A DNA stretch of 64,000 nt. Origin: Eledone cirrhosa. Lineage: Eukaryota. The notes beneath the pieces are model-generated. The model was given only the letters and a program-made list of their open reading frames with translations, was not told the origin of the DNA and did no database searches. This document shows, in pieces, positions 91-57,139 of this stretch (position 1 is the first letter of the stretch; every line of letters begins with the position of its first letter). Both the position numbers and the translations under genes were made by a program. The stretch covers positions 4,836,001 through 4,900,000 of the forward strand of contig OZ024762.1 in assembly GCA_964016885.1 (NCBI GenBank). The letters are read 5' to 3'.

Positions 91-3000
91 ATGGTTGATG
101 AGCTTACACGAGAAGATGTGGAAACATTTTTCGAAGAAAATCCTGAATTCCTTAAAAAATATGCAAGTAAGAATAAAATACCACCTTCAGCATTATCATT
201 TATCGAACACCTTCAATTAATTCTTAGTCGAAAAATAGCCTACCAAACGCAAAGGAGCAGTGTGATTTCCGAATTCGAGACTTACAGAGAAATACTCAAG
301 GAATTCGCTTCCGAACTCAATGAGGATAGACTGTGCTACGTAATTCTTCAAAACACATGTATCTTACTCAATTGTGACAGCGCCAATATTTTCGTGGCTC
401 GAGGTACTGATAATAACCGTTATCTTATTTCTAAATATATAGGTGTCACTTCTAATTCACAACGAACCGAAAGTCAGTATAAAGGACTCAATCCCATTCG
501 CATACCATTCGGTAAAGGAATTGTAGGCTATGTAGCTGAAACTAAGCGTACCTTAAAAGTCACTGATGTTGCCAATTCTGAATATTATAAAATGGTTGAT
601 GTAAAATCTTTCACACCTAATGCCAAAAGTATTCTTTCTATGCCAATTTTAAATAAAAGCGGGAAGGTGATGGGGGTAGCTCAGGTAATGAACTATGACG
701 AAAATTCCGATTTTTCTTCAGAAGATGAAGCTTTATTTGCGAACTTACTGTCCTTTTGTGGAATCGGTATAGAGACTGTTTATTTGTTCCAAGTTTGTAC
801 TGAGGAAGCCAGGCGCAACGCGTTATTACTTAAACTCACGGATTGCATTCTGAAAGTACAAAACAATCTACCGAAGCTTATATCTGAAATTCTACAACAA
901 GCTATGGAGATGTTAGACTGCCGTAATATATGTGTCTATTTGTGTGACAAAACCAAAGGGACAGTCGAGCCTAAGAAGAACTCTAAAGTGTTTCAATTAT
1001 TAAGAGATGAAAACAATATGGAGGAGGTAACAATAGACAGCAGATTTATAAAGCATCTTGAAAGCAATTTGAAAAGTGAGAATATATTCGATATTTTCGA
1101 TTTAAAAACATATGCTGATGTCTCGGTTTCAGATGAGGATAATATCGAAAGTTGGTTACTTTGTATGGCAATAAAGGATGCCAAAGGAAATACAATTGGT
1201 TCGATAATGTTTATTAGAGATTCCAAGGACATATTCAGTGAAAATGATATCAATATGATAAAAACGTTTGCATCGGTTTGTGGTTTGAGTATTTTCAACT
1301 GTCGCCTGTACGAGACTTCAGTTAATTTGTTGGAACAGGCGAAAATAACTAACGATAGACTTGCTTATCACACAATATGCCATATGAAAACTGTTGAAAG
1401 ATACCGTTCAATGAAGTTGAAGTCTGCAGAAGAATATCAAATCTACAGTTTTGACTTCGATGATTCTTTATATAAAGAGGAAGACGGTGTTTTATTGTGT
1501 GTACTGATGTTTTTAAAACTTGACGTTGTAAATATATTGAATATATCTCAAAATTTTTTATACAGGTTTATTCTAACGGTTAAAAAGAACTATCGTCCGG
1601 TTGCCTACCATAATTGGCGCCATGCTTTAAACGTTACACAAACAATGTTCTGCATGTTAACTACAGGCCACGTAGGTAATTACTTTACACAATTTCAACA
1701 GATCTGCTTGTTAATGGCTTGTATGTTTCATGATCTTGATCACCGGGGACAGAACAATTCGTTTCAAGTGAAGATAGCCTCTTCTATTGCTACACTGTAC
1801 GGTACATCTGTATTGGAACACCACCATCTTGACCGGGGTATGATGATTCTGAATAATACTGGAACTAATATCTTTCAAAATCTTCCCGCAGAACAATACC
1901 AGCTTGGTCTCAAATTAATCGAGAAAGCAATCTTAGCTACCGACCTCATGAATTATTTTTCACGAATAAACATTTTTAAACATGAAGTAGAAAGCGGTCA
2001 CAAAGAGTTCGATACTCCCGAAGGGGTTGATTTGCTACTCAACATGTTAATGACTGCAGCCGATCTATCAGGTATTACTAAGCCATGGCCGGTTCAAAAG
2101 AGAATAGCCGTTCAAGTCGCAGCTGAAATGTTCGAACAAGGAGACATAGAGAAAAATTTACAATGTGAGGTAATATCGTTGATGGATCGTGAGAAAAGAT
2201 ACGAAGTGCCTTCAAAGCAAGTTGATTTCATTGATTTTGTGTGTACACCGGTTTATAAAGTCCTAGCAGAATTGGAAGGGTGTTTGAGACCCTTATATGA
2301 CGGCTGCCTAAGAAACAGATCCCAGTGGTACCTTGTTGCAATTGGTAAAGAAATGTTTGATATCGATGAAGAATTAAATCTTGCTTCAAATAAACCTTTA
2401 ACCTTTGAAGAGCAAGAGAAAATTCGATGCCAAATTCGCAAAACTTCTATTCCAGTAGATCGCAAACCTACTCCAGGATATCGCAAAACTTCTGTTCCAG
2501 TAGATCGCAAACTTTCTGCTCCAGTATATCGCAAAACTGCTTCTGCAGTAGATCGCAAAACTGCTTCTGCAGTAGATCGCAAAACTTCTTTTGCAGTAGA
2601 TCGCAAAGCTTTTTCTGTAGATTTCAAAACTTCTCCAGTAGATCGCAAAACTTCTCAAGTAGATCGCAAAACTTCTGCAGTAGATCGCAAAACATCTCCA
2701 GAAGGTAAAGCTCAGACATTAGAAATGTTTAATATAATGGACCAAGATAACCTTCCTCCTTGGAGCCAACCTCAATCGTTATATCGAGCGCCCTCGTTCA
2801 TACCAAGACTAAAGAAGCTTACTAATATAAAACCATCAAATGATCCTATTCAGAAACCTAACATAATAAATAAACATGAAAACTACCCTTTTCTTTTTAA
2901 GCCTGAAACGGAAAGCCCCTTAAATATATATAGTCACAAAAAGAAGCTTTTTCCAGACGATCTGATAAAAATAACTCCGTGCAAGTTACTAAAAAATGAT

Positions 3001-3519
3001 TTGACTTCACCACGAACCAATAGAACAAAAAATTTTATAGTTTATTCCAATATCAATAAATCTGCTACGAACGAAAGTTCGATTATCGAAAATAACGGAA
3101 TGGAATTTAAAAAAGATGCAGAAAACTCTGACTCCTCGCATCGAAATTTCTATTCAACATTGGCTCCTTCCTCTACTTCTCTAGAATCATCGGTAGATAT
3201 CCATACACTAATGGAAGAACACAACACACTAATGAAAGAAAACGATGGCAACAACGCACGTCCTTATCATGGCGTCGAACAAGTCGTATTCGGCGATATC
3301 TGTAGTGTTTCTGAAAACCTAACTAGAAAAATAGGAGTAGATTTGATTGAAAGTAACACAATTTCTACAGTAAACGAATATACAGAGATTCATTCGGTGG
3401 AGTGTGATTTGACACCAAATATCAACAAATTTCGACGACGAAAATGTATGAAGAAGGGTTCCATTAATAAGAACAATCATTACGGCAGCTGGAAGACTCA
3501 TCTGTGTGTGATTTCATAA
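91..3519 (+). CDS. Intronless GAF-GAF cyclic nucleotide phosphodiesterase, PDE5/6-like, paralogue 1 (1142 aa, ends in CaaX CVIS)
   Basis: Single uninterrupted ORF. GAF-A features (IRIPFGKGIVGYVA, SILSMPI, GVAQVMN..F..EDE), a second degenerate GAF, and class I PDE catalytic motifs YHNWRHA, HDLDHRG, LEHHH, ILATD, AADLS..TKPW, EMFEQGD, QVDFID. C-terminus ...RRRKC...CVIS-stop. Confidence 0.93.
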   Translation: MVDELTREDVETFFEENPEFLKKYASKNKIPPSALSFIEHLQLILSRKIAYQTQRSSVISEFETYREILKEFASELNEDRLCYVILQNTCILLNCDSANIFVARGTDNNRYLISKYIGVTSNSQRTESQYKGLNPIRIPFGKGIVGYVAETKRTLKVTDVANSEYYKMVDVKSFTPNAKSILSMPILNKSGKVMGVAQVMNYDENSDFSSEDEALFANLLSFCGIGIETVYLFQVCTEEARRNALLLKLTDCILKVQNNLPKLISEILQQAMEMLDCRNICVYLCDKTKGTVEPKKNSKVFQLLRDENNMEEVTIDSRFIKHLESNLKSENIFDIFDLKTYADVSVSDEDNIESWLLCMAIKDAKGNTIGSIMFIRDSKDIFSENDINMIKTFASVCGLSIFNCRLYETSVNLLEQAKITNDRLAYHTICHMKTVERYRSMKLKSAEEYQIYSFDFDDSLYKEEDGVLLCVLMFLKLDVVNILNISQNFLYRFILTVKKNYRPVAYHNWRHALNVTQTMFCMLTTGHVGNYFTQFQQICLLMACMFHDLDHRGQNNSFQVKIASSIATLYGTSVLEHHHLDRGMMILNNTGTNIFQNLPAEQYQLGLKLIEKAILATDLMNYFSRINIFKHEVESGHKEFDTPEGVDLLLNMLMTAADLSGITKPWPVQKRIAVQVAAEMFEQGDIEKNLQCEVISLMDREKRYEVPSKQVDFIDFVCTPVYKVLAELEGCLRPLYDGCLRNRSQWYLVAIGKEMFDIDEELNLASNKPLTFEEQEKIRCQIRKTSIPVDRKPTPGYRKTSVPVDRKLSAPVYRKTASAVDRKTASAVDRKTSFAVDRKAFSVDFKTSPVDRKTSQVDRKTSAVDRKTSPEGKAQTLEMFNIMDQDNLPPWSQPQSLYRAPSFIPRLKKLTNIKPSNDPIQKPNIINKHENYPFLFKPETESPLNIYSHKKKLFPDDLIKITPCKLLKNDLTSPRTNRTKNFIVYSNINKSATNESSIIENNGMEFKKDAENSDSSHRNFYSTLAPSSTSLESSVDIHTLMEEHNTLMKENDGNNARPYHGVEQVVFGDICSVSENLTRKIGVDLIESNTISTVNEYTEIHSVECDLTPNINKFRRRKCMKKGSINKNNHYGSWKTHLCVIS
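2437..2700 (+). repeat. Coding 21/24-bp tandem repeat (about 12 units, GTAGATCGCAAAACTTCT-like) encoding VDRKTS(A/P)
   Basis: Repeated cgcaaaacttct/gtagat units, in frame inside PDE paralogue 1. Confidence 0.9.
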
Positions 3520-17824: not shown

Positions 17825-19071
17825 CCGGAAGTGGATTAGCTTGAGAAGACCGCCAACGATACTTTGATATTAATGACCGGAAGTGGATTAGCTTCAGAAG
17901 ACCGCCAACGATACTTTGATACTAATGACCGGAAGTGGATTAGCTTCAGAAGACCGCCAACGATACTTTGATACTAATGACCGGAAGTGGATTAGCTTGA
18001 GAAGACCGCCAACGATACTTTGATACTAATGACCGGAAGTGGATTAGCTTGAGAAGACCGCCAACGATACTTTGATACTAATGACCGGAAGTGGATTAGC
18101 TTCAGAAGACCGCCAACGATACTTTGATACTAATGACCGGAAGTGGATTAGCTTCAGAAGACCGCCAACGATACTTTGATACTAATGACCGGAAGTGGAT
18201 TAGCTTGAGAAGACCGCCAACGATACTTTGATACTAATGACCGGAAGTGGATTAGCTTGAGAAGACCGCCAACGATACTTTGATACTAATGACCGGAAGT
18301 GGATTAGCTTCAGAAGACCGCCAACGATACTTTGATACTAATGACCGGAAGTGGATTAGCTTCAGAAGACCGCCAACGATACTTTGATACTAATGACCGG
18401 AAGTGGATTAGCTTGAGAAGACCGCCAACGATACTTTGATACTAATGACCGGAAGTGGATTAGCTTGAGAAGACCGCCAACGATACTTTGATACTAATGA
18501 CCGGAAGTGGATTAGCTTCAGAAGACCGCCAACGACACTTTGATACTAATGACCGGAAGTGGATCAGCTTGAGAAGACCGCCAACGATACTTTGATACTA
18601 ATGACCGGAAGTGGATTAGCTTGAGAAGACCGCCAACGATACTTTGATACTAATGACCGGAAGTGGATTAGCTTCAGAAGACCGCCAACGATACTTTGAT
18701 ACTAATGACCGGAAGTGGATTAGCTTCAGAAGACCGCCAACGATACTTTGATACTAATGACCGGAAGTGGATTAGCTTGAGAAGACCGCCAACGATACTT
18801 TGATACTAATGACCGGAAGTGGATTAGCTTCAGAAGACCGCCAACGATACTTTGATACTAATGACCGGAAGTGGATTAGCTTGAGAAGACCGCCAACGAT
18901 ACTTTGATACTAATGACCGGAAGTGGATTAGCTTGAGAAGACCGCCAACGATACTTTGATACTAATGACCGGAAGTGGATTAGCTTCAGAAGACCGCCAA
19001 CGATACTTTGATACTAATGACCGGAAGTGGATTAGCTTCAGAAGACCGCCAACGATACTTTGATACTAATG
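17825..19071. repeat. 52-bp minisatellite, about 24 copies (CCGGAAGTGGATTAGCTT[C/G]AGAAGACCGCCAACGATACTTTGATACTAATGA)
   Basis: CCGG at 17825 and 17877 gives period 52. Shorter arrays of the same unit at 23644-23872 and 28432-28712. Confidence 0.97.
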
Positions 19072-20019
19072 AAACCCCCTCAGACACATGGAATCAGAAC
19101 ACAAACAATGCAACCTCACCTGGACTCTTACCTAAAGTCTAAAGTCCGTTTGGAGCCCGGGGTCTTATCCCGTTGCCTGAAGCGACTGAGAGTACAAACT
19201 TCCTCCTGGACAGGACGCCAGTCCATCGCAGGGTTAAACCCCCCCCCCCCCCCAGCTATTGTTGGTCCTCATTTTCAGCTGAGTATACAGGAGCAACGTG
19301 AGATGAAATGTTTTGCTTAAGAACATTCCCCCCCCCCCCACGGAATCACCCCTTAAGAACACAACACACCACCCCTCCCCCAGGAATCACCCCCCCCCCC
19401 CACTCACACACACACACGATCCAGGGGACATTAGAGGCCCAGGAAGACCAAAAAGGACTTGGATGGAGGATATCCGTCGAGATGATGTTAGGCTTTGCCT
19501 GGCCTAAGTGAGACCAGCGGAGCGGGACGCTAAGGAGCGCTGTCAGACAGAACCCACCCCTACTTAGGGATTAATTGTGTCCTGCATACTCAAAAACTGG
19601 ATGATGATGACTTATTATCATAAGTCCCAAACCCTTACCACTAGGCCAGGCGTCTTCACAGTCTTATTCTCCCAGTAGAACAAGTGACGTATGTGAAAAC
19701 TGGGCTCTTACCCCGCAGTGAAAAGTATCTGTTAGCCTCCTAGAATATGTGACCCTTAAAAGCAGTATAAAACTAAAATACTAACCTTGTGTATGCTACA
19801 CCCGTATAACATAGATGTTGTGTGTCTCTCAAAAGTGAGATTACAAGGCTTCTTCTGATATCAATTCTTTAAGATTCCTTAATCCTCAATCTTCAGTCGA
19901 CCATTGTATTATAGTGGTGTTGACAATGATTCTGGACAACATGGTGTGACATTTTCCCTCGTTGTGCAGTCCAGAACATCTCTGTTATCCTTGGATCCCC
20001 AAACCTCAACCCCACCCCC

Positions 20020-21133: not shown

Positions 21134-23656
21134 ATGGAGGACGAACTTTCAGAAGTAAACGTGATACGATTCTTTATGGAAAATCCACTATTCATTAAAT
21201 CATGGCTTTATGAGAGCGGGCGAGGTGAATTAGCTGAAGATCTTTTCGAGCCCTTTCAGGGTCCAGCAGTTGCAGCAACATCCTTTATAGATTATTTAGA
21301 AGAAATCGTGTTTCTTAAGAGACCTGCAGGAAAAGGTCGGAACAGTAGAATTTATGAAAATAAGGTGTACAAAGAAGTAATGAAAAATGTTAACACTGTG
21401 ATTGATGTTCAAAATGTATGCCATAAGATTCTTCAGAATCTATGCATCTTACTTCACTGTGAGAAAGCAAGTCTTTTTTTGACTCGAGGAACGGAAGATA
21501 ACCAATATCTTCTCTCGTCCTTATTCGATGTCACGGCAACATCTGTTTTAGAGGAAACGGTACACACCGAAGAAAATGCCATACGAATTCCATTCGATAA
21601 AGGTATTTCAGGATTTGTAGCTACAAACAGATGTATAGTAAATGTTAAAGATGTGTATCGAGATTCTCGCTTTTTATGTGATGTGGACCAAAAGACTGGG
21701 TTTCGCACCAAAAGTATTCTATGTATGCCAGTTCTGGGAAGAGATACCCATTTGATAGGTGTAGCTCAGGTAATGAACAAAGAAAATGGTTTGGGTTTTG
21801 AAAAGGGAGATGAAATTATATTCGAGAGCTTTTTGTCATTTTGTGGTATCTGTGTGGATAACTCTTTTTCCTTTGAAAAAGCGTATGAGGAACATAAACG
21901 CCAGAAAGTACTAGAAAAGCTCAGTAAATGCATATTAAAATATCAAAACGCACCCCAGAATCTTATACCCGAAATTATGAAGCTTGCCATGGAAATGTTA
22001 CACTGTGAGAGCATTTATGTCTATCTAGCTGATACGAAGAAGGATGCATATCCTCCAAATAAATCTTCGAAAGTCTTCCAGTTGTTGAAAGGGGAATCGA
22101 ATATCACAGAAGAGATTATAGGCCCGAAAGTTAGAAAAGCAATTGAAGAGAATATGAACAGTGGACACACTTTAGATTTGATTAATATGGACGACATGGG
22201 CGATGTTAATGCGATACGTCTCGATAGTACAGTTGAAAGTTGGTTAATTTGTTTAGCCATTAAAGATTCTTACCAGAATTTCGTTGGTAGCCTTGTGTTT
22301 CTTAGAGAATCAAATGATATGTTCAACCGAAATGATATCAATATGATGGAGCTGTTTGCAACATTCTGCGGGTTAGCTTTCTACAACTTCCGTCTTTATA
22401 AAACCTCGGTACAGACGCTAAATCAGCTAGAATATACAAATAAACTTCTTAACTATATAACTTCTTCTGAACCAAAGAATGTACTTAATCATTTAAGATT
22501 GAAGATAAAGTCTTCAAATGACTATCACATTCATAAATTCGATTTCAGTGATTTTGTATTTTCAGAAGAAGAAACCGTTTTGTTGTGTGTCCGTATATTT
22601 TTAGAAGCCAACATATTGGCCGTACTCAGCATACCTATGGACTTATTATATAGTTGGTTGCTAACTGTTAAAAAGAACTATCGACCTGTCACCTATCATA
22701 ATTGGCGTCATGCTGTTAACGTGACTCAAACTATGTTTTGTATGTTTACCACGGGTGGATTACAAAAATATTTCACAGAATTTGAAAGGATTTGTCTATT
22801 GATAGCTTGTTTGTGTCATGATCTCGATCACAGGGGAACAAATAGTGCGTACCTCGTGAAGACGTCATCTCCTCTTGCTACAATGTACAGTACGTCTGTC
22901 TTGGAACACCATCACATAAATCGAAGTATCGCAATACTACAATGCAATAATACAAATATTTTTCAAAATACACCCGCTGAAGTATATCAGGAAGGTCTCA
23001 AATTATTTGAGAAAGCAATCCTTTCTACAGACCTTAAACTTTATTTTGAGAAGCGAAGTCTTTTCAAACAAAAATTTGAAATCGATGACCCTAATTTGAA
23101 ATCTCCTGAAAGTAAGGAATTATTACTCGCGATGATGATGACAGCAGCCGATCTTTCAGCTATTACTAAGCCATGGCCTGTTCAAAAAAGAACAGCCCTT
23201 ACTATTGCAACAGAATTATTTGAACAAGGAGACTTGGAGAGCGCGTATAACCTCCCATTGGTGCCGATGCTGGATCGTGGAAAAAGACATCAAATACCTC
23301 AAATGCAAGTTAGTTTTATAGATTTAGTGTGTACAATGGTTTATAAACTCTTTTCACAAGTGAGTAATCGTCTGACGCCTATGTATAATGGAATGCTTAA
23401 AAACAGAACTCATTGGTCCAATATTGTAATTGGTAAGGAAAAATTTGATATTGACAAAGAATTCGGATACCTTTCCCACGTCAAGCCAGGAAAAAAAAAG
23501 ACAGCAAAGAAATATCGACGATCTCTTCTAATTCAAACTATTTTTACATTTCCTTCGCGTAAACAAATAAGCCAGACAGATATTTCCATCCCTCCACATT
23601 TAATTCGGAAGAAACTTAACCTTAATCATGGCAACTCAGTCAGAACGATACTTTGA
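21134..23656 (+). CDS. Intronless GAF-GAF PDE5/6-like paralogue 2 (840 aa), C-terminally truncated, stop codon supplied by the VNTR
   Basis: Intact GAF-A (D.RF..DVDQKTGFRTKSILCMP, NK..F...DE) and complete catalytic domain (YHNWRHA, HDLDHRG, QVSFID). Lacks the last ~200 aa and the CaaX of paralogue 4. Confidence 0.85.
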   Translation: MEDELSEVNVIRFFMENPLFIKSWLYESGRGELAEDLFEPFQGPAVAATSFIDYLEEIVFLKRPAGKGRNSRIYENKVYKEVMKNVNTVIDVQNVCHKILQNLCILLHCEKASLFLTRGTEDNQYLLSSLFDVTATSVLEETVHTEENAIRIPFDKGISGFVATNRCIVNVKDVYRDSRFLCDVDQKTGFRTKSILCMPVLGRDTHLIGVAQVMNKENGLGFEKGDEIIFESFLSFCGICVDNSFSFEKAYEEHKRQKVLEKLSKCILKYQNAPQNLIPEIMKLAMEMLHCESIYVYLADTKKDAYPPNKSSKVFQLLKGESNITEEIIGPKVRKAIEENMNSGHTLDLINMDDMGDVNAIRLDSTVESWLICLAIKDSYQNFVGSLVFLRESNDMFNRNDINMMELFATFCGLAFYNFRLYKTSVQTLNQLEYTNKLLNYITSSEPKNVLNHLRLKIKSSNDYHIHKFDFSDFVFSEEETVLLCVRIFLEANILAVLSIPMDLLYSWLLTVKKNYRPVTYHNWRHAVNVTQTMFCMFTTGGLQKYFTEFERICLLIACLCHDLDHRGTNSAYLVKTSSPLATMYSTSVLEHHHINRSIAILQCNNTNIFQNTPAEVYQEGLKLFEKAILSTDLKLYFEKRSLFKQKFEIDDPNLKSPESKELLLAMMMTAADLSAITKPWPVQKRTALTIATELFEQGDLESAYNLPLVPMLDRGKRHQIPQMQVSFIDLVCTMVYKLFSQVSNRLTPMYNGMLKNRTHWSNIVIGKEKFDIDKEFGYLSHVKPGKKKTAKKYRRSLLIQTIFTFPSRKQISQTDISIPPHLIRKKLNLNHGNSVRTIL

Positions 23657-23872
23657 TACTAATGACCGGAAGTGGATTAGCTTGAGAAGACCGCCAACGA
23701 TACTTTGATACTAATGACCGGAAGTGGATTAGCTTCAGAAGACAGCCAACGATACTTTGATACTAATGACCGGAAGTGGATTAGCTTGAGAAGACCGCCA
23801 ACGATACTTTGATACTAATGACCGGAAGTGGATTAGCTTCAGAAGACCGCCAACGATACTTTGATACTAATG
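23644..23872. repeat. 52-bp minisatellite, 4 full units
   Basis: Four CCGGAAGT cores counted. Confidence 0.95.
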
Positions 23873-25921
23873 AAACCCCCTCAGACACATGGAATCAGAA
23901 CACAAACAATGCAACCTCACCTGGACTCTTACCTAAAGTCTAAAGTCCGTTTGGAGCCCGGGGTCTTATCCCGTTGCCTGAAGCGACTGAGAGTACAAAC
24001 TTCCTCCTGGACAGGACGCCAGTCCATCGCAGGGTTAACCCCCCCCCCCCCCAGCTATTGTTGGTCCTCATTTTCAGCTGAGTATACAGGAGCAACGTGA
24101 GATGAAATGTTTTGCTTAAGAACACCCCCCCCTCCGGAATCACCCCTTAAGAACACAACACAACACACCTCCCTCAGGAATCACCCCCCCCCCCCACACA
24201 CACACACGATCCAGGGGACAGTAGAGGCCCAGGAAGACCAAAAAGGACTTGGATGGAGGATATCCGTCGAGATGAAGTTAGGGTTGGCCTGGCCCAAGTG
24301 AGACCAGCGGAGCGGGACGCTAAGGAGCGCTGTCAGACAGAACCCACCCCTACTTAGGGATTAATTGTGTCCTGCATACTCAAAAACTGGATGATGATGA
24401 CTTATTATCATAAGTCCCAAACCCTTACCACTAGGCCAGGCGTCTCCACAGTCTTATTCTCCCAGTAGAACAAGTGACGTATGTGAAAATTGGGCTCTTA
24501 CCCCGCAGTGAAAAGTATCTGTTAGCCTCCTAGAATATGTGACCCTTAAAAGCAGTATAAAACTAAAATACTAACCTTGTGTACGCTACACCCGTATAAC
24601 ATAGATGTTGTGTGTCTCTCAAAAGTGAGATTACAAGGCTTCTTCTGATATCAATTCTTTAAGATTCCTTAATCCTCAATCTTCAGTCGACCATTGTATT
24701 ATAGTGGTGTTGACAATGATTCTGGACAACATGGTGTGACATTTTCCCTCGGTGTGCAGTCCAGAACATCTCTGTTATCCTTGGATCCCCAAACCTCAAC
24801 TCCACCCCCATTTATCTCGGATCCATCCGAAGGCCTCGTTGAACTTGTATAACATTTCTGTCATAGCAGTTTATACACTAACCCTGGATGATGGTGATGA
24901 TTGTGTGAAGTATCAGTTTTCTACGGCCACCTCAACCCAGCTGCTGACAGAACATCTTCCAACGATCTCCATATTGTTACAGGAAAAGACGACGTAAGCA
25001 AAATAGACGGAGCCGCGTTGAGTTTGTTGCCAATAAACGCGACGAATGTACACAAGCTAGAAGTTTGTGAACACTTTTGCCGTCTTCACCTTTCTTCCCT
25101 TCGCGTCGTTAAAATAGTTGCTTGTTAATACCGAACTAATTCGATCAACTTTTCTTCCCATTGCCTTGGAAAGCTTAAGGGAAAAGCAAATAATGAAGAT
25201 TGCGATAAGTTGCCAGAAACTCTGTTGAGCATTGTACTAAATGTTGTATAAGGTCCCGTAACTCCTGATAGAGTCGTAGGGCGCCGTATTTACATACGGC
25301 GTTTCTTGGGTATTTTAAGCTTGGCAGAACCCCTCCCTCCCTAGGCCTGAGTACAGCAGATTTCTTTCAGAGAAAGGAAGAATCGACTCCAGTACTAGAG
25401 GCAAAGCTGACCTTGGTAGGATTTGAACTCAGAGAGCAAAGAGCCGGAACGAACTCCACAAAGCATTCTATCCGACGTTCTAACGACTCTGCCAATTCGC
25501 CGCCACTAAGTACTAGCAGCAATATATAGTCCAATTTTTCTGTGTTCTCAGTTTAGTTCTGAGTTTAGTTCCACCCAGCATCAACAGAGCATTCTATCTC
25601 GCTGATATCAATAAAATAAATGCAAATTATTTATCTGGGGTGAATTCAATCAAGAAAGTTTTACCTAGCCCAGTTAAATCAACGATAAAATATGCAGGTG
25701 TGTCATCTAAACCTTAATCGTTTGAGAACTTGGAGTATTTATTTTGTCATAAATTGTCATACGTCACAACAGATTCATTTAACGTGATTTGAAAGGCAAG
25801 CCACGAAAACATGTCTGCTTCTAGTGTCAAGTAACGGAAACTGAAGAAGTTTTCTTCTTTTTTTTTTTAGAATCGTAGGATTCAGTGAAAATGGATTTGA
25901 TAGTAAACTAAAAACAAAATC

Positions 25922-28363
25922 ATGGAGGACGAACTTACAGAAGTAAACGTGATACGATTCTTTATGGAAAATCCACTATTCATTAAATCATGGCTTTATG
26001 AGAGCGGGCGAGGTGAATTAGCTGAAGATTTTTTCCAGCGCTTTCAGGGTCCAGCAGTTGCAGCAACATCCTTTATAGATTATTTAGAAGAAATCGTGTT
26101 TCTTAAGAGACCTGCAGGAAAAGGTCGAAACAGTAGAATTTATGAAAATAAGGTGTACAAAGAAGTAATGAAAAATGTTAACACTGTGATTGATGTTCCA
26201 AATGTATGCCATAAGATTCTTCAGAATCTATGCATCTTACTTCACTGTGAGAAAGCAAGTCTTTTTTTGACTCGAGGAACGGGAGATAACCAATATCTTG
26301 TCTCGTCCTTATTCGATGTCACGGCAACATCTGTTTTAGAGGAAACGGTACACACCGAAGAAAATGCCATACGAATTCCATTCGATAAAGGTATTTCAGG
26401 ATTTGTAGCTAAAAACAAATGTATAGTAAATGTTAAAGATGTGTATCGAGATCCTCGCTTTTTACGTGATGTGGACCAAAAGACTGGGTTTCGCACCAAA
26501 AGTATTCTATGTATGCCAGTTCTGGGAAGAGATACCCATTTGATAGGTGTAGCTCAGGTAATGAACAAAGAAAATGGTTTGGGTTTTGAAAAGGGAGATG
26601 AAATTATATTCGAGACCTTCTTGTCATTTTGTGGTATCTGTGTGGATAACTCTTTTTCCTTTGAAAAAGCGTATGAGGAACATAAACGCCAGAAAGTACT
26701 AGAAAAGCTCAGTAAATGCATATTAAAATATCAAAACGCACCCCAGAATCTTATACCCGAAATTATGAAGCTTGCCATGGAAATGTTACACTGTGAGAGC
26801 ATTTATGTCTATCTAGCTGATACGAAGAAGGATGTATATCCTCCAAATAAATCTTCGAAAGTGTTCCAGTTGTTGAAAGGGGAATCGAATATCACAGAAG
26901 AGATTATAGGCCCGAAAGTTAGAAAAGCAATTGAAGAGAATATGAACAGTGGAAACACTTTAGATTTGATTAATATGGACGACATGGGCGATGTTAATGC
27001 GATACGTCTCGATAGTACAGTTGAAAGTTGGTTAATTTGTTTAGCCATTAAAGATTCTTCCCAGAAATTCGTTGGTAGCCTTGTGTTTCTTAGAGAATCA
27101 AATGATATGTTCAACCGAAATGATATCAATATGATGGAGCTGTTTGCAACATTCTGCGGGTTAGCTTTCTACAACTTCCGTCTTTATAAAACCTCGGTAC
27201 AGACGCTAAATCAGCTAGAATATACAAATAAAGTTCTTAACTATATAACTTCTTCTGAACCAAAGAATGTACATAATCATTTAAGATTGAAGGTAAAGTC
27301 TTCAAATGACTATCACATTCATAAATTCGATTTCAGTGATTTTGTATTTTCAGAAGAAGAAACCGTTTTGTTGTGTGTCCGTATATTTTTAGAAGCCAAC
27401 ATATTGTCCGTACTCAGCATACCTATGGACTTATTATATAGTTGGTTGCTAACTGTTAAAAAGAACTATCGACCTGTCACCTATCATAATTGGCGTCATG
27501 CTGTTAACGTGACTCAAACTATGTTTTGTATGTTTACCACGGGTGGATTACAAAAATATTTCACAGAATTTGAAAGGATTTGTCTATTGATAGCTTGTTT
27601 GTGTCATGATCTCGATCACAGGGGAACAAATAGTGCGTACCTCGTGAAGACGTCATCTCCTCTTGCTACAATGTACAGTACGTCTGTCTTGGAACACCAT
27701 CACTTAAATCGAAGTATCGCAATACTACAAAGCAATAATACAAATATTTTTCAAAATACACCCGCTGAAGTATATCAGGAAGGTCTCAAATTATTTGAGA
27801 AAGCAATCCTTGCTACAGACCTTACACTTTATTTTGAGAAGCGAAATCTTTTCAAACAAAAATTTGAAATCGATGACCCTAATTTGAAATCTCCTGAAAG
27901 TAAGGAATTATTACTCGCGATGATGATGACAGCAGCCGATCTTTCAGCTATTACTAAGCCATGGCCTGTTCAAAAAAGAACAGCCCTTACTATTGCAACA
28001 GAATTATTTGAACAAGGAGACTTGGAGAGCACGTATAACCTCCCATTGGTGCCGATGCTGGATCGTGAAAGAAGACATGAAATACCTCAAATGCAAGTTA
28101 GTTTTATAGATTTAGTGTGTACAATGGTTTATAAACTCTTTTCACAAGTGAGTAATCGTCTGACGCCTATGTATAATGGAATGCTTAAAAACAGAACTCA
28201 TTGGTCCAATATTGTAATTGGTAAGGAAAAAATTGATATTGACAAAGAATTCGGATACCTTTCCCACGTCAAGCCAGGAAAAAAAAAAGCAAGAAAGAAA
28301 TATCGACGATCTGTTCTAATTCAAACTATTTTTACATTTCCTTCGCGTAAAGAAATAACCTAG
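25922..28363 (+). CDS. Intronless GAF-GAF PDE5/6-like paralogue 3 (813 aa), truncated by a CAG>TAG change after the catalytic domain
   Basis: Near-identical to paralogues 2 and 4. ATAACCTAG here versus ATAACCCAG in paralogue 4. All catalytic motifs are intact. Confidence 0.83.
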   Translation: MEDELTEVNVIRFFMENPLFIKSWLYESGRGELAEDFFQRFQGPAVAATSFIDYLEEIVFLKRPAGKGRNSRIYENKVYKEVMKNVNTVIDVPNVCHKILQNLCILLHCEKASLFLTRGTGDNQYLVSSLFDVTATSVLEETVHTEENAIRIPFDKGISGFVAKNKCIVNVKDVYRDPRFLRDVDQKTGFRTKSILCMPVLGRDTHLIGVAQVMNKENGLGFEKGDEIIFETFLSFCGICVDNSFSFEKAYEEHKRQKVLEKLSKCILKYQNAPQNLIPEIMKLAMEMLHCESIYVYLADTKKDVYPPNKSSKVFQLLKGESNITEEIIGPKVRKAIEENMNSGNTLDLINMDDMGDVNAIRLDSTVESWLICLAIKDSSQKFVGSLVFLRESNDMFNRNDINMMELFATFCGLAFYNFRLYKTSVQTLNQLEYTNKVLNYITSSEPKNVHNHLRLKVKSSNDYHIHKFDFSDFVFSEEETVLLCVRIFLEANILSVLSIPMDLLYSWLLTVKKNYRPVTYHNWRHAVNVTQTMFCMFTTGGLQKYFTEFERICLLIACLCHDLDHRGTNSAYLVKTSSPLATMYSTSVLEHHHLNRSIAILQSNNTNIFQNTPAEVYQEGLKLFEKAILATDLTLYFEKRNLFKQKFEIDDPNLKSPESKELLLAMMMTAADLSAITKPWPVQKRTALTIATELFEQGDLESTYNLPLVPMLDRERRHEIPQMQVSFIDLVCTMVYKLFSQVSNRLTPMYNGMLKNRTHWSNIVIGKEKIDIDKEFGYLSHVKPGKKKARKKYRRSVLIQTIFTFPSRKEIT

Positions 28364-28431
28364 ACAGATATTTCCATCCCTCCACATTTAATTCAGAAGA
28401 AACTTAACCATAATCATGGCAACTCAGTCAG

Positions 28432-28712
28432 AACGATACTTTGATACTAATGACCGGAAGTGGATTAGCTTGAGAAGACCGCCAACGATACTTTGATACT
28501 AATGACCGGAAGTGGATTAGCTTGAGAAGACCGCCAACGATACTTTGATACTAATGACCGGAAGTGGATTAGCTTGAGAAGACCGCCAACGATACTTTGA
28601 TACTAATGACCGGAAGTGGATTAGCTTCAGAAAACCGCCAACGATACTTTGATACTAATGACCGGAAGTGGATTAGCTTCAGAAGACCGCCAACGATACT
28701 TTGATACTAATG
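28432..28712. repeat. 52-bp minisatellite, 5 full units
   Basis: Five CCGGAAGT cores counted. Confidence 0.95.
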
Positions 28713-30788
28713 AAACCCCCTCACACACATGGAATCAGAACACAAACAATGCAACCTCACCTGGACTCTTACTTAAAGTCTAAAGTCCGTTTGGAGCCCG
28801 GGGTCTTATCCCGTTGCCTGAAGCGACTGAGAGTACAAACTTCCTCCTGGACAGGACGCCAGTCCATCGCAGGGTTAAACCCCCCCAGCTATTGTTGGTC
28901 CTCATTTTCAGCTGAGTATACAGGAGCAATGTGAGATGAAATGTTTTGCTTAAGAACACCCCTACCCCCACCCCCCCACCCCCCACCCACCCCCACCCAC
29001 CCCCCCGGAATCACCCCTTAAGAACACAACACAACACCCCTCCCTCAGGAATCACACCCCCACACACACACACGATCAAGGGGACAGTAGAGGCCCAGGA
29101 AGACCAAAAAGGGCTTGGATGGAGGATATCCGTCGAGATGATGTTAGGCTTGGCCTGGCCTAAGTGAGAGCAGCGGAGCGGGACGCTAAGGAGCGCTGTC
29201 AGACAGAACCCACCCCTACTTAGGGATTAATTGTGTACTGCATACTCAAAAACTGGATGATGATGACTTATTATCATAAGTCCCAAACCCTTACCACTAG
29301 GCCAGGCGTCTCCACAGTCTTATTCTCCCAGTAGAACAAGTGACGTATGTGAAAACTGGGCTCTTACCCCGCAGTGAAAAGTATCTGTTAGCCTCCTAGA
29401 ATATGTGACCCTTAAAAGCAGTATAAAACTAAAATACTAACCTTGTGTACGCTACACCCGTATAACATAGATGTTGTGTGTCTCTCAAAAGTGAGATTAC
29501 AAGGCTTCTTCTGATATCAATTCTTTAAGATTCCTTAATCCTCAATCTTCAGTCGACCATTGTATTATAGTGGTGTTGACAATGATTCTGGACAACATGG
29601 TGTGACATTTTCCCTCGGTGTGCAGTCCAGAACATCTCTGTTATCCTTGGATCCCCAAACCTCAACCCCACCCCCATTTATCTCGGATCCATCCGAAGGC
29701 CTCGTTGAACTTGTATAACATTTCTGTCATAGCAGTTTATACACTAACCCTGGATGATGGTGATGATTGTGTGAAGTATCAGTTTTCTACGGCCACCTCA
29801 ACCCAGCTGCTGACAGAACATCTTCCAATGATCTCCATATTGTTACAGGAAAAGACGACGTAAGCAAAATAGACGGAGCCGCGTTGAGTTTGTTGCCAAT
29901 AAACGCGACGAATGTACACAAGCTAGAAGTTTGTGAACACTTTTGCCGTCTTCACCTTTCTTCCCTTCGCGTCGTTAAAATAGTTGCTTGTTAATACCGA
30001 ACTAATTCGATCAACTTTTCTTCCCATTGCCTTGGAAAGCTTAAGGGAAAAGCAAATAATGAAAATTGCGATAAGTTGCCAGAAACTCTGTTGAGCATTG
30101 TACTAAATGTTGTATAAGGTCCCGTAGCTCCTGATAGAGTCGTAGGGCGCCGTATTTGCATACGGCGTTTCTTGGGTATTTTAAGCTTGGCAGAACCCCT
30201 CCCTCCCTAGGCCTGAGTACAGCAGATTTCTTTCAGAGAAAGGAAGAATCGACTCCAGTACTAGAGGCAAAGCTGACCTTGGTAGGATTTGAACTCAGAG
30301 AGCAAAGAGCCGGAACGAACTCCACAAAGCATTCTATCCGACGTTCTAACGACTCTGCCAATTCGCCGCCACTAAGTACTAGCAGCAATATATAGTCCAA
30401 TTTTTCTGTGTTCTCAGTTTAGTTCTGAGTTTAGTTCCACCCAGCATCAACAGAGCATTCTATCTCGCTGATATCAATAAAATAAATGCAAATTATTTAT
30501 CTGGGGTGAATTCAATCAAGAAAGTTTTACCTAGCCCAGTTAAATCAACGATAAAATATGCAGGTGTGTCATCTAAACCTTAATCGTTTGAGAACTTGGA
30601 GTATTTATTTTGTCATAAATTGTCATACGTCACAACAGATTCATTTAACGTGATTTGAAAGGCAAGCCACGAAAACATGTCTGCTTCTAGTGTCAAGTAA
30701 CGGAAACTGAAGAAGTTTTCTTCTTTTTTTTTTCAAGAATCGTAGGATTCAGTGAAAATTGATTTGATAGTAAACTAAAAACAAAATC

Positions 30789-33700
30789 ATGGAGGACGAA
30801 CTTACAGAAGTAAACGTGATACGATTCTTTATGGAAAATCCACTATTCATTAAATCATGGCTTTATGAGAGCGGGCGAGGTGAATTAGCTGAAGATTTTT
30901 TCGAGCCCTTTCAGGATTCAGGAGTTGCAGCAACATCCTTTATAGATTATTTAGAAGAAATCGTGTTTTATAAGAAACCTGCAGTAAAAGGTCGGGACAG
31001 TAGAATTTGTGAAAATAAAGTGTACAAAGAAGTAATGAAAAATGTTAACAGTGTAATTGATGTTCAACATGTATGCCATAAGATTCTTCAGAATGTATGC
31101 ATCTTACTTCACTGTGAGAAAGCAAGTCTTTTTTTGACTCGAGGAACGGAAGATAACCAATATCTTCTCTCGTCCTTATTCGATGTCACGGCAACATCTG
31201 TTTTAGAGGAAACGGTACACACCGAAGAAAATGCCATACGAATTCCATTCGATAAAGGTATTTCAGGATTTGTAGCTACAAACAAATGTATAGTAAATGT
31301 TAAAGATGTGTATCGAGATCCTCGCTTTTTATGTGATGTGGACCAAAAGACTGGGTTTCGCACCAAAAGTATTCTATGTATGCCAGTTCTGGGAAGAGAT
31401 ACCCATTTGATAGGTGTAGCTCAGGTAATGAACAAAGAAAATGGTTTGGGTTTTGAAAAGGGAGATGAAATTATATTCGAGACCTTCTTGTCATTTTGTG
31501 GTATCTGTGTGGATAACTCTTTTTTCTTTGAAAAAGCGTATGAGGAACATAAACGCCAGAAAGTACTAGAAAAGCTCAGTAAATGCATATTAAAATATCA
31601 AAACGCACCCCAGAATCTTATACCCGAAATTATGAAGCTTGCCATGGAAATGTTACACTGTGAGAGCATTTATGTCTATCTAGCTGATACGAAGAAGGAT
31701 GCATATCCTCCAAATGAATCTTCGAATGTCTTCCAGTTGTTGAAAGGGGAATCGAATATCACAGAAGAGATTATAGGCCCGAAAGTTAGAAAAGCAATTG
31801 AAGTGAATATGAACAGTGGACACACTTTAGATTTGATTAATATGGACGACATGGGCGATGTTAATGCGATACGTCTCGATAGTACAGTTGAAAGTTGGTT
31901 AATTTGTTTAGCCATTAAAGATTCTTCCCAGAAATTCGTTGGTAGCCTTGTGTTTCTTAGAGAATCAAATGATATGTTCAACCGAAATGATATCAATATG
32001 ATGGAGCTGTTTGCAACATTCTGCGGGTTAGCTTTCTACAACTTCCGTCTTTATAAAACCTCGGTACAGACGCTAAATCAGCTAGAATATACAAATAAAG
32101 TTCTTAACTATATAACTTCTTCTGAACCAAAGAATGTACTTAATCATTTAAGATTGAAGATAAAGTCTTCAGATGACTATCACCTTCATAAATTCGATTT
32201 CAGTGATTTTGTATTTTCAGAAGAAGAAACCGTTTTGTTGTGTGTCCGTATATTTTTAGAAGCCAACATATTGGCCGTACTCAGCATACCTATCGACTTA
32301 TTATATACTTGGTTGCTAACTGTTAAAAAGAACTACCGACCTGTCACCTATCATAATTGGCGTCATGCTGTTAACGTGACTCAAAGTATGTTTTGTATGT
32401 TTACCACGGGTGGATTACAAAAATATTTCACAGAATTTGAAAGGATTTGTCTATTGATAGCTTGTTTGTGTCATGATCTCGATCACAGGGGAACAAATAG
32501 TGCGTACCTCGTGAAGACGTCATCTCCTCTTGCTACAATGTACAGTACGTCTGTCTTGGAACACCATCACATAAATCGAAGTATCGCAATACTACAAAGC
32601 AATAATACAAATATTTTTCAAAATACACCCACTGAAGTATATCAGGAAGGTCTCAAATTATTTGAGAAAGCAATCCTTTCTACAGACCTTAAAATTTATT
32701 TTGAGAAGCGAAATCTTTTCAAACAAAAATTTGAAATCGATGACCCTAATTTGAAATCTCCTGAAAGTAAGGAATTATTACTCGCGATGATGATGACAGC
32801 AGCCGATCTTTCAGCTATTACTAAGCCATGGCCTGTTCAAAAAAGAACAGCCCTTACTATTGCAACAGAATTATTTGAACAAGGAGACTTGGAGAGCGCG
32901 TATAACCTCCCATTGGTGCCGATGATGGATCGTGGAAAAAGACATCAAATACCTCAAATGCAAGTTAGTTTTATAGATTTAGTGTGTACAATGGTTTATA
33001 AACTCTTTTCACAACTGAGTAATCATCTGACGCCTATGTATAATGGAATGCTTAAAAACAGAACTCATTGGTCCAATATTGTAATTGGTAAGGAAAAATT
33101 TGATATTGACAAAGAATTCGGATACCTTTCCCACGTCAAGCCAGGAAAAAAAAAATCAGGATTGAAACATCGACAATCTGTTCTAATTCAAACTATTTTT
33201 ACATTTCCTTCGCGTAAACAAATAACCCAGACAGATATTTCCATCCCACCACATTTAATTCGGAAGAAACTTACCCATAATCGTGGCAACTCATTCATAA
33301 CGGATTCAGATTGTCAGACTGAAGATCTGGAACGGTCTACCGTGGCGGTACAGACAGATATTTTGAGTGACTCACGGCGTTTGTCGATTATAATGCCACA
33401 CGAGCAACCGATGATTTCTCCGGAACAAACCCAAGACGATTCTATGAGTATGGAAACCAAAACATTAATGAAAACATCCAGTAGTGGTTATTCAAAGTTA
33501 ATTCAACATTCAAGCGCCAACAGAAGACGTTCAAGTATGATTGAAGATATTGCAATCGAAAAACGCACTGAATTACAACGAAAAAGAAACGAAAATCAAA
33601 GTCCACCTTTCGCGCAGGAAGAGATTCCGCAGTTAATAAAAAAATCATCGATTACTGTTCTACCACCAAACTCCCTTGATGAACTAAGACGAACATCCTC

Positions 33701-33914
33701 ACAAAGAACACGACTTTCTATTAACTTCCAAGACTCAAAAACTCAGCTGAAACAAACTTTAAGCAATAATTTACTTCAAACTTCCCTAGGAGGCTTGCTT
33801 ACAACTAACATGGAGCAGTCCATCCGAAAACGCAAATGTTTACAGTCTGATAGGGAAAAAAAGAAACCCGGGCGCCGTAAGTCTTGGAGGAGTGTCATGT
33901 GTGTCATAGCATAA
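30789..33914 (+). CDS. Intronless GAF-GAF PDE5/6-like paralogue 4 (1041 aa), full-length member of the triplication, ends in CaaX CVIA
   Basis: Same domain motifs. Long disordered tail ending RKRKC...KKKPGRRKSW..MCVIA-stop. AATAAA about 65 nt downstream. Confidence 0.93.
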   Translation: MEDELTEVNVIRFFMENPLFIKSWLYESGRGELAEDFFEPFQDSGVAATSFIDYLEEIVFYKKPAVKGRDSRICENKVYKEVMKNVNSVIDVQHVCHKILQNVCILLHCEKASLFLTRGTEDNQYLLSSLFDVTATSVLEETVHTEENAIRIPFDKGISGFVATNKCIVNVKDVYRDPRFLCDVDQKTGFRTKSILCMPVLGRDTHLIGVAQVMNKENGLGFEKGDEIIFETFLSFCGICVDNSFFFEKAYEEHKRQKVLEKLSKCILKYQNAPQNLIPEIMKLAMEMLHCESIYVYLADTKKDAYPPNESSNVFQLLKGESNITEEIIGPKVRKAIEVNMNSGHTLDLINMDDMGDVNAIRLDSTVESWLICLAIKDSSQKFVGSLVFLRESNDMFNRNDINMMELFATFCGLAFYNFRLYKTSVQTLNQLEYTNKVLNYITSSEPKNVLNHLRLKIKSSDDYHLHKFDFSDFVFSEEETVLLCVRIFLEANILAVLSIPIDLLYTWLLTVKKNYRPVTYHNWRHAVNVTQSMFCMFTTGGLQKYFTEFERICLLIACLCHDLDHRGTNSAYLVKTSSPLATMYSTSVLEHHHINRSIAILQSNNTNIFQNTPTEVYQEGLKLFEKAILSTDLKIYFEKRNLFKQKFEIDDPNLKSPESKELLLAMMMTAADLSAITKPWPVQKRTALTIATELFEQGDLESAYNLPLVPMMDRGKRHQIPQMQVSFIDLVCTMVYKLFSQLSNHLTPMYNGMLKNRTHWSNIVIGKEKFDIDKEFGYLSHVKPGKKKSGLKHRQSVLIQTIFTFPSRKQITQTDISIPPHLIRKKLTHNRGNSFITDSDCQTEDLERSTVAVQTDILSDSRRLSIIMPHEQPMISPEQTQDDSMSMETKTLMKTSSSGYSKLIQHSSANRRRSSMIEDIAIEKRTELQRKRNENQSPPFAQEEIPQLIKKSSITVLPPNSLDELRRTSSQRTRLSINFQDSKTQLKQTLSNNLLQTSLGGLLTTNMEQSIRKRKCLQSDREKKKPGRRKSWRSVMCVIA

Positions 33915-35450: not shown

Positions 35451-37699
<2,249 letters not shown>

Positions 37700-37819
37700 A
37701 GCAAATGAATGAATGAAGGAGATACTAGCCGTTAAAACAAGTTGTTTATATAAATCTTATATAATGTTTCGCACCTCTCTGTATCTCTCTACCTCCTCCT
37801 CTCCTACGATACATATTTA

Positions 37820-49000: not shown

Positions 49001-49471
49001 AGTTCACAGGATTCTACATCATTTGCTGACGAAATGTTGAAACTACCGTCCCCGAGGTCTAAAATGTCAATGGATTCTTCATTTTCTATGATAAAAAGCA
49101 AACTTCCTGAACCAATAAAGGAAGAAGTTAGTGACAGTGACCAAGAATTGGTTGCCGTGTCTAATTCAAAAGTTTTTGAAAATGTTAATTCTGAGCATTA
49201 TCTCACGTCACATCTTTCTTTGAACTGGGCACAATCTTGGTCGAATATATTTGAAACAAATGACTTAACTGAAATACCTGCTGGTCAAAGGGAATATGCG
49301 ACACCTAGAAACGATAGCCAAACTGAATCCAACTCAATTGACTTCGGCGCATCCAAATTTCTGAACAGTCTCAACCTCCGAAAACGTAAATGTGTTAGGA
49401 TTAATCCGAAAAAACAAAAGAAAAGGAGTCAGAAATTGGGTATTCTTGAACATGTATGTGGGATTTCTTAG
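46088..49471 (+). CDS. Intronless GAF-GAF PDE5/6-like paralogue 5 (1127 aa from first ATG), ends in CaaX CGIS
   Basis: Single ORF; first ATG at 46088 (the track starts at a TTG at 46076). Divergent GAFs, complete catalytic motifs (YHNWRHA, HDLDHRG, EFFEQGD, QVGFID). Tail RKRKC..KKQKKR..VCGIS-stop. Confidence 0.92.
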   Translation: MIKTEPTALTAVEVETFLGDNKEFVIEWLSAHGMQEIADDTSKRFVAEKITLTFLKKLMSRLGEDDLSTTPIFLDLFREILKDVAISVNENALTHKILQAACKLVQCRRTSLFLVQGTSENRFLASKFSDVKITSKMKETLNTEGNTIMVPFGEWVVGYVAVNKCFVNIKETTDESRVIKDIDKYEKSKAKTILAAPVCDKSGVVIGVVKAMDKLEDKDFTHQDENVFEFISAFCAVTITSARIFESSRDEDKRHKIMLKLTQIIMKDYSNVQKCITEILNQALVLLECDNVSIYVTDDTKDLQHFNESTEVFQLLKGEKEVKCTPIEPRFIPIIKLNRQRVSKMNIIDLLLPENIKVTIDGNVKNWLSCVSIIDSCKTLIGHMMFLRESINTFNDFQITMMKTFALYFGLVIYRNNLFNSYQYVSRTSFTDELLAIHIICPESDVNKMQRLKIQSPEHYNIYYFDFASNLLPENETFTVAVLIFLEMKALEILKISMSTLYRFLLTIKKNYRPVTYHNWRHAVNVTQSMFCMFTTGGLQKYFTEFERICLLMACLCHDLDHRGTNSAYLVKTSSPLATMYSTSVLEHHHLNRSIAILKNDSTNIFQNTPAEVHQEGLKLFEKAILATDLTLYFEKRNLFKQKFEIDDPNLKSPESKELLLVMMMTAADLSAITKPWHIQKLTAMLISSEFFEQGDLEKCMDVDVISLMDRKKIHEIPKSQVGFIDFVCTMAYKLLSQVSEYMMPMYHGLLNNRTHWSDIANGKEEFDIEKEFQNALKMHDEINDLTTPDQETYSNATTQTLLQDFKGKGEQQTIQTELSYPKEALVSIHDLTVPVLHESNIDTIHKETRSCQTNKKCFKEAPSQTTPPAIPAGEDFTQLPTQFRSVRPVTKPGVYSGSDHKMSSAFNPVNSFPRRTSCFDQLVDQRRKELQEKKQNICLENKEKLFPLGKPSHTVLPPDPMNLMNKNESKSSQDSTSFADEMLKLPSPRSKMSMDSSFSMIKSKLPEPIKEEVSDSDQELVAVSNSKVFENVNSEHYLTSHLSLNWAQSWSNIFETNDLTEIPAGQREYATPRNDSQTESNSIDFGASKFLNSLNLRKRKCVRINPKKQKKRSQKLGILEHVCGIS

Positions 49472-57071: not shown

Positions 57072-57139
57072 GTAAGAGACCAAAGAGTTTTTTTTTTTAA
57101 TTTATTCTTCTTTACAGTTTAAATGGCCATCCTTAGTCA

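Follow-up and report, generated by a model that had tools for sequence, protein, structure and literature searches.

Drosophila Pde6 is prenylated (Day et al. 2008, as cited in an excerpt of PMC4595086), and the PDE5 of sea-urchin sperm is described in part of PMC7024835 as an abundant flagellar enzyme that clears cyclic GMP (cGMP) near the membrane. According to passages of PMC6678300, PDE6D acts as a carrier for prenylated ciliary cargo. Here we describe a group of related genes from Eledone cirrhosa, located in a stretch of 64,000 nucleotides (assembly GCA_964016885.1, contig OZ024762.1, positions 4,836,001 to 4,900,000 of the forward strand) that is referred to below as the window and numbered from its first letter. 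The window contains five GAF-GAF-PDEase genes in tandem, all on the forward strand and each consisting of one uninterrupted open reading frame (ORF) without introns. On balance, and with modest confidence, we regard them as a fast-evolving cephalopod expansion of the PDE5/6 group that encodes likely farnesylated cGMP phosphodiesterases of testis or sperm with a composite targeting tail.

The genes were named c1 to c5 in their order along the window. Three of them, c1 (91..3519, 1142 amino acids), c4 (30789..33914, 1041 amino acids) and c5 (46088..49471, 1127 amino acids), have a full tail. The other two, c2 (21134..23656, 840 amino acids) and c3 (25922..28363, 813 amino acids), are recent duplicates of c4: the ORF of c2 enters a 52-bp satellite and then meets a stop codon, and that of c3 is closed by an in-frame stop past the catalytic domain, with a tail remnant that extends to 28435. 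Both lack the two terminal motifs described below, and c2 keeps two anchors of the tail block that precedes them. Hidden tails of c2 and c3 were considered and rejected; both frames terminate in the 52-bp satellite, and no downstream exon with these motifs emerged when the window was searched by tblastn with the full tails of c1, c4 and c5 or read in three frames. Apart from the five genes, no PDE copies or remnants were detected in the 64-kb window. An AATAAA signal is present within 700 nt 3′ of c4 and c5 and absent 3′ of c1, c2 and c3, which is not decisive. A run of about 18 A at 33921-33938, a few bases past the c4 stop, is either a microsatellite or a retrocopy relic.

The tails of c1, c4 and c5 end in the same arrangement. 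Positions 3424-3519, the terminus of c1, read NKFRRRKCMKKGSINKNNHYGSWKTHLCVIS and then a stop. By direct reading, the terminal CaaX motif and stop are CVIS in c1 (3505..3519), CVIA with TAA in c4 (33900..33914) and CGIS with TAG in c5 (49457..49471), and the coordinates given in a preliminary description of this DNA for its R(R/K)RKC...CaaX-stop ends were exact on re-reading in all three genes. That description had also called the motifs farnesyl-type, which the published tables bear out: CVIS, CVIA and CGIS are each positive with all four prenylation predictors in the supplement of PMC9231725, which predicts for the yeast enzyme, and CGIS is a member of its positive training set. Ser or Ala in the last position favors farnesyltransferase, as stated in an excerpt of PMC11254824. 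It is very probable that c1, c4 and c5 are farnesylated and membrane-associated, as these motifs predict. When each tail was shuffled 200,000 times, the chance of a Cys at position −4 was 0.012-0.017 per tail; because the paralogues are homologous, the shuffle values in this work measure retention in a drifting tail rather than three independent events. The shuffles led us to reject a chance or repeat origin of the terminal motif. All five complete named Octopus paralogues terminate with an upstream basic-Cys box and Cxxx, and the c1 orthologue P0158 also ends in CVIS. That the relatives start and end alike argues against transcripts splicing or running past these termini.

The terminal Cys is widespread in the family. 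It stands at −4 in 89 of 117 named non-cephalopod homologues (isoforms included) and, with six PDE11-type or unclear rows excluded, in at least one form for 63 of 73 invertebrate genera. The genera with a Cxxx tail include a sponge, cnidarians, molluscs, arthropods (Drosophila among them), echinoderms, hemichordates and amphioxus; three PDE11-type rows have no terminal Cxxx. Judged by this distribution, the Cxxx tail is the ancestral state of invertebrate PDE5/6. The last residue is Ser or Ala in 9 of 12 clade members and Leu in 53 of 89 other tails.

The basic-Cys box lies upstream of the CaaX motif and reads RRRKC in c1 (3433..3447, Cys at −24) and RKRKC in c4 (33825..33839, Cys at −25) and c5 (49379..49393, Cys at −26). 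A six-frame scan of the 64 kb with [RK][RK][RK]KC returned four matches, namely the three boxes and one short non-genic minus-strand frame. The probability of R[RK]RKC within the last 45 residues was 5e-6 to 6.5e-5 per tail (200,000 shuffles each). With the pattern [RKQ][RK][RK]C, which was loosened after the data had been seen, the box with its Cys at −21 to −32 was found in 11 of the 12 CaaX-bearing clade members and in none of 89 other CaaX tails. By this comparison the box is a novelty of the cephalopod clade, unlike the CaaX motif and the N-terminal helix discussed below, and its chemistry is putative. A farnesyl group usually requires a second membrane signal, either charge or palmitate, and the box fits that need. 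The last 30 residues contain 9 Lys or Arg in c1, 12 in c4 and 11 in c5; the basic patch that had been noted before is modest in c1. The preliminary description had proposed a second lipid at the box Cys, and we consider S-palmitoylation of this residue a candidate modification for which the case is evenly balanced. The echinoderm proteins P0100, P0103, P0104, P0105, P0109 and P0156 have a separate conserved upstream Cys at −17/−18, possibly a parallel second-lipidation site.

The tails had been described as barely alignable. This is correct between the paralogues of the window, where c4 and c5 align with E 1e-4 and nothing was reported for c1 and c4 at E<0.05, but each full tail aligns with the tail of its own orthologue (E 1e-35, 1e-17 and 3e-23), and further motifs are conserved. 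The catalytic domain is immediately followed by a block of three to four xQT anchors whose positions correspond among paralogues and which is conserved in the Octopus paralogues; the preliminary description did not mention it. Four such anchors, which are candidate sites for the dynein light chain LC8, are located at 33174..33359 in c4 (the best being RKQITQTD at 33213-33236 and STVAVQTD at 33336-33359) and four at 48470..48688 in c5 (the best being EQQTIQTE at 48518-48541). In 16 of the 17 clade tails we counted 44 anchors, where 9.5 would be expected; in 102 of 117 non-cephalopod tails there were 16, where 26.4 would be expected; the sites are homologous and not independent. When the flanking rules from PMC6607443 were applied, the counts were 7 against 0.5 expected in 14 clade tails and 1 against 1.1 in the 102 others. 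Across the whole tail, c4 has 4 anchors and c5 has 5, against 0.7 expected each, of which 2 and 1, respectively, pass all flank rules. Asp, Glu or Pro occupies position +2 in 20 of 41 sites, against a tail frequency of 0.19. In the structure model of c4, the sites fall in a region with a predicted local distance difference test score (pLDDT) of <50, which is disordered. LC8 binds TQT-like motifs in the radial-spoke protein RSP3, according to part of PMC12399478. Binding of LC8 at two or more of the candidate sites is, in our judgment, somewhat favored.

Farther along the tail, c4 has an RRxS motif followed by a helix (residues 913-935, 33525..33593) that is common to c5 and relatives; in c5 the conserved helix motif begins with RRTSCF at 48830..48847. 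A pattern search found RRxS and the helix in 8 of 13 tails, and residues 917-935 are the sole ordered tail element of the c4 model. In c4 and c5, the RRxS helix is followed by an S..V.PP element, and together they may form a phospho-regulated module. The tail of c1 differs, in that a 24-bp tandem repeat (2436..2698, 11.6 copies) with units of the DRK(T/L)S type replaces the xQT block. This coding repeat supplies about 11 units, which are candidate basophilic kinase sites, and is absent from the orthologue P0158.

All five ORFs match PDEase_I of Pfam (E 1e-76 to 1e-79) and GAF-A. The metal-binding His and Asp residues of the catalytic site and the invariant Gln are kept, and the residues map to Asp764, Gln775, Gln817 and Phe820 of PDE5A, with Gln725 and Phe728 of c4 equivalent to PDE5A Gln817 and Phe820. 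In PDE5A, Gln775, Gln817 and Phe820 are substrate-pocket residues for cGMP preference, and a preference for cGMP is predicted from them with considerable confidence. The c4 model superimposes on PDE5 and PDE6 catalytic domains with Z about 43 and a root-mean-square deviation of 1.6-1.9; the structural alignment covered residues 64-775, with the N-terminal helix outside. Pfam matched GAF-A, and GAF-B is a GAF-like fold in the c4 model that aligns through to PDE6. The GAF-A motifs of the cGMP pocket are decayed in c1 and c5 and intact in c2, c3 and c4, and the GAF-B motif NK..F..DE is lost in all 16 clade members aligned. Among the relatives, the invariant substrate Gln is replaced by Glu in P0011 of Octopus vulgaris, and P0166 has several degraded catalytic motifs yet keeps the box and Cxxx, which makes it a possible pseudo-enzyme.

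The closest matches of the five proteins are from Octopus vulgaris, O. bimaculoides and O. sinensis, at 39-59% identity (52% for the closest relatives). Trees were built by quick LG+G4 searches without bootstrap on selections of 55, 60 and 31 rows, in which each genus had at most two; in them, the window and Octopus proteins formed one clade with a long stem and a Shimodaira–Hasegawa-like approximate likelihood ratio (SH-aLRT) support of 100. Within it, c5 pairs with P0012 of O. vulgaris, c2, c3 and c4 with P0006/7/8/9, and c1 with P0158. This pairing of orthologues indicates that the c1, c4-type and c5 lineages predate the split from Octopus. When the clade was held with molluscan PDE5/6, the tree was 17.4 log-likelihood units better than the free search (approximately unbiased test, p-AU 0.87), and the split from three PDE11-type rows had an SH-aLRT of 98-99. 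The Octopus paralogues are perhaps co-located, as four from O. vulgaris are on a 48.2-Mb contig and two from O. bimaculoides on a 36.2-Mb contig. No slow-evolving cephalopod parent was present among the best 120 of 1494 matches to an abalone homologue (8000 candidates scored, many molluscs present), nor was a conserved cephalopod parent gene among the 28 matches listed in a second search. The apparent lack of such a parent is suggestive only.

The genes c2, c3 and c4 are copies of a 4.87-kb unit bounded by the 52-bp satellite, arrays of which lie at the left border of the triplication (17825..19072), the c2/c3 junction (23644..23873), where the satellite supplies the c2 stop codon, and the c3/c4 junction (28432..28713). 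In c4 the duplicated unit ends at 33302, short of the anchor, and c2 and c3 therefore have none. The catalytic tract of c5 at 47604..48405 (codons 528-677) has been homogenized with c2, c3 and c4 to 91-99% nucleotide identity, compared with 37-63% before it; its counterpart in c4 is 32317-33118, and identity elsewhere is about 50%. Over codons 1-785 of c2, c3 and c4 (21134-33143), there are 55 replacement and 6 silent differences (pN/pS 2.4, p 0.022). This excess of replacements is a possible sign of positive selection.

The N-terminal helix is encoded at 103..150 in c1, at 30801..30848 in c4 (residues 7-16 of the model, pLDDT about 75-85) and at 46112..46159 in c5, where Lys replaces Pro. A profile of the helix matched PDE6C and PDE6A first, though weakly (E 0.025 and 0.58), but the same helix can be aligned to PDE5A, through a sea-urchin protein, and to fly PDE11. 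The helix reported before is thus present and aligns to PDE6C and PDE6A, and it belongs to PDE5/6/11-type proteins in general; we rejected it as a feature diagnostic of PDE6. As whole proteins, the window genes score 458 bits with PDE5A and 417 bits with PDE6, a difference biased by the evolutionary rates of PDE6, and the trees contained no vertebrate rows. The view that c1, c4 and c5 are specially PDE6-like is therefore not upheld, as Cxxx and helix are family-wide and the whole-protein score is higher for PDE5A. In line with this, the portions of the literature consulted report no invertebrate PDE6-gamma (Lagman et al., PMC4906994), a single grouping with vertebrate PDE6, that of a tunicate PDE (PMC4948711), and PDE5A-, PDE11A- and PDE6-like groups in cnidarians with no PDE6 orthologue (PMC9776813).

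Intron-free, tandem and fast-changing copies are typical of male germ-line genes. A gene of O. sinensis annotated as "cGMP-specific PDE-like" (EVM0008366) has 13.93 fragments per kilobase per million mapped reads (FPKM) in testis, against 0 in ovary. Of the 28 genes of this species that are annotated as PDE, 14 appear in the enrichment table of genes differentially expressed in testis, where 2.55 would be expected (PMC11202624). Testis or sperm is, somewhat more likely than not, the main site of the enzymes described here. Several observations weigh against the reading of the cluster as farnesylated, multiply targeted sperm enzymes. The O. sinensis genes are linked to this clade by name and not by sequence. 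Attachment of the clade was unstable in free trees, and the tree of 31 rows placed it next to PDE11 with support 11. In c4, a donor-like GTAAGT occurs at 33877, between box and CaaX, and the termini of P0008 and P0013 lack Cxxx. Gastropod homologues also end in Ser, so this residue is not specific to cephalopods, and 26 of the 89 CaaX tails from other animals also contain some Cys upstream of the motif. As to the anchors, 7 of the 41 xQT sites satisfy every rule, the pattern was chosen post hoc, and the rule set is not LC8Pred; c1 has no excess of xQT (1 against 0.36), and the basal P0013 and P0160 have no anchors. Many TQT-bearing peptides fail to bind LC8, as stated in part of Jespersen et al. 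(PMC6607443). Finally, outside the converted tract the replacement excess is not significant (38 replacement against 5 silent, p 0.10).

Other interpretations of the cluster differ mainly in where the enzymes would act. The preliminary description thought the features notable for an animal with a rhabdomeric eye, and PDE6-like effectors could in principle serve light detection in eye or skin beside the Gq cascade. The first ranks of PDE6C and PDE6A in the helix search, the prenylation of PDE6 subunits (PMC11254824, in part) and the full-length PDE6 structures at the top of a Foldseek search would suit such a role; the Foldseek ranking, however, depends in part on which proteins have a solved full-length structure, helix and Cxxx are common to the whole family, and the sequence scores favor PDE5A. 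With only a tunicate PDE beside vertebrate PDE6 and no invertebrate gamma in the passages of PMC4948711 and PMC4906994 cited above, and with testis as the sole expression lead found, the features give no link to vision and we regard a visual role as very improbable. A broader alternative is that the genes are simply the cephalopod orthologues of general invertebrate PDE5/6, with somatic turnover of cGMP at membranes (in muscle, renal or neuronal tissue) and paralogues divided among tissues, testis being one of them. By the general pattern noted above, germ-line genes are a better match for the long stem, the repeated duplications, the excess of replacements and the lack of introns. In favor of a somatic role, the Drosophila homologue acts in Malpighian tubules, and its prenylation site sets localization (PMC4595086, an excerpt citing Day et al.). 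The absence of cephalopod proteins from the best 120 of 1494 abalone-homologue matches would fit a somatic role, since a slow-evolving parent may be missing, but that search scored 8000 candidates and the parent gene may still exist. Because PDE genes are also enriched in O. sinensis testis (PMC11202624), we consider a mainly somatic role rather unlikely.

Two further alternatives concern single parts of the cluster. The box could be a polybasic signal that is not acylated, acting through membrane electrostatics or in importin-type or ciliary import, so that anchoring would depend on farnesyl and charge. From the box to the C-terminus, the proteins of the window and the named Octopus proteins have a net charge of +8 to +11, P0164 has Cxxx without a box, and the basic cluster of P0013 contains no Cys, all of which are consistent with this idea; against it, the Cys is retained in the 11 of 12 CaaX-bearing members despite a varying spacer (21-32) and varying neighbors. 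A purely polybasic box is thus plausible, with a probability that we place below even. The second alternative is that c2 and c3 are dying copies, in which the replacement excess reflects relaxed constraint and gene conversion rather than positive selection. Their tails were lost at the satellite junction, the c3 frame stops early, there is clear conversion with c5, and significance is lost outside the converted tract. Relaxation, however, predicts a ratio near 1, compared with the 2.0-2.4 observed; private replacements are most numerous in the intact c4 (26, with 3 silent changes); and there is no frameshift over 785 codons in c2 or c3. Replacement sites also vary more than the upstream DNA (38 of 1226 against 34 of 2036 variable columns, Fisher p 0.006), which is perhaps itself constrained. 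We consider this second alternative, with dying copies and an excess due to relaxed constraint and conversion, less likely than not.

Under our preferred reading, of sperm cGMP phosphodiesterases with a composite tail, the enzymes with intact catalytic sites would hydrolyse cGMP. In c4 and c5, LC8 may pair the two disordered tails of a dimer near the catalytic domains. The far end of the tail would dock at the inner leaflet through its farnesyl group, its basic residues and a reversible acylation of the box Cys. PDE6D is a likely carrier of the farnesylated enzyme, and the RRxS sites could offer kinase control. The composite tail would in this way target the enzyme to the membrane of the sperm flagellum. 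The copies c2 and c3, whose anchor was lost by truncation, would be soluble or decaying. We consider it probable that the genes originated by retroposition. A bolder version holds that a retro-derived, positively selected array of sperm enzymes replaced a spliced PDE5/6, with an LC8-zipped rod and a farnesyl/palmitoyl anchor forming a tether from axoneme to flagellar membrane, and c2 and c3 acting as soluble or heterodimer-tuning forms; we regard this version as unlikely.

Other elements were noted in the window. A 43-bp unit is arrayed over 8.4 kb at 5423-13802 (195 copies, 96% matches) and yields long spurious ORFs. Between c4 and c5, on the minus strand at 35754-37724, is a fragment of a retrotransposon without long terminal repeats, with RVT_1 and zf-RVT domains. 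The first coding exon of a sugar transporter of the major facilitator superfamily (Pfam Sugar_tr, E 1e-11) is located at 56645-57097 on the forward strand and is a possible synteny marker.

A comparison with described systems places these genes as follows. In literature searches, which covered few subscription journals, no paper dealing with the cluster or with its tail came to light, and a single search showed no PDE listed with a multi-anchor block of the LC8 type. Drosophila Pde6 shares with the window genes the GAF-GAF-catalytic layout, the N-terminal helix, a basic patch with Cxxx and membership of the same PDE5/6 group. Unlike them, it ends in CALL, which is of the geranylgeranyl type, and lacks the basic-Cys box and the xQT block; the window genes, in turn, are single-exon, tandem and fast-evolving, with a degenerate GAF-B motif. 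PDE5A is the best sequence match in the PDB (E 3e-136) and shares the substrate-pocket residues and, through the sea-urchin protein, the helix. It has no long tail, and its N-terminal region is much longer than that of the window proteins, which begin at the helix. To our knowledge, vertebrate PDE5A has no CaaX motif. Vertebrate PDE6A, PDE6B and PDE6C resemble the window genes in the N-terminal helix, in C-terminal prenylation (predicted here) and in overall fold, but have a lower score than PDE5A and lack the tail of 260-370 residues. Vertebrate PDE6 is defined by gamma inhibition and transducin activation, and no invertebrate gamma is known in the part of PMC4906994 cited here. The sample of relatives shows that animal PDE5/6 had the prenylated tail and the N-terminal helix ancestrally and that these are not marks of vision; vertebrate PDE6 likely kept both, and PDE5 likely lost the CaaX motif.

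The LC8 clients ASCIZ and RSP3 resemble c4 and c5 in having several TQT-like anchors, a disordered stretch and a dimeric protein (PMC6607443 and PMC12399478, in excerpts). In c4 and c5, by contrast, the carrier is an enzyme with a predicted lipid anchor, and the sites are candidates from sequence alone. If LC8 binding and dual lipidation were both true, they would constitute a route of PDE localization that we did not find described in the literature searched. The sea-urchin suPDE5 belongs to the same group and has a Cxxx end (CSVI), with an upstream Cys that is common to echinoderms; it differs in its short tail without box or xQT excess, in both GAF motifs being intact and in its short branch. 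Its role in flagellar cGMP breakdown, as described in part of PMC7024835, is the closest functional model for the window genes. For cephalopods, the cluster reveals an expanded, fast-changing family of cGMP phosphodiesterases whose targeting tail is new and whose expression lead is testis, which makes it a candidate for a part in octopod sperm signaling.

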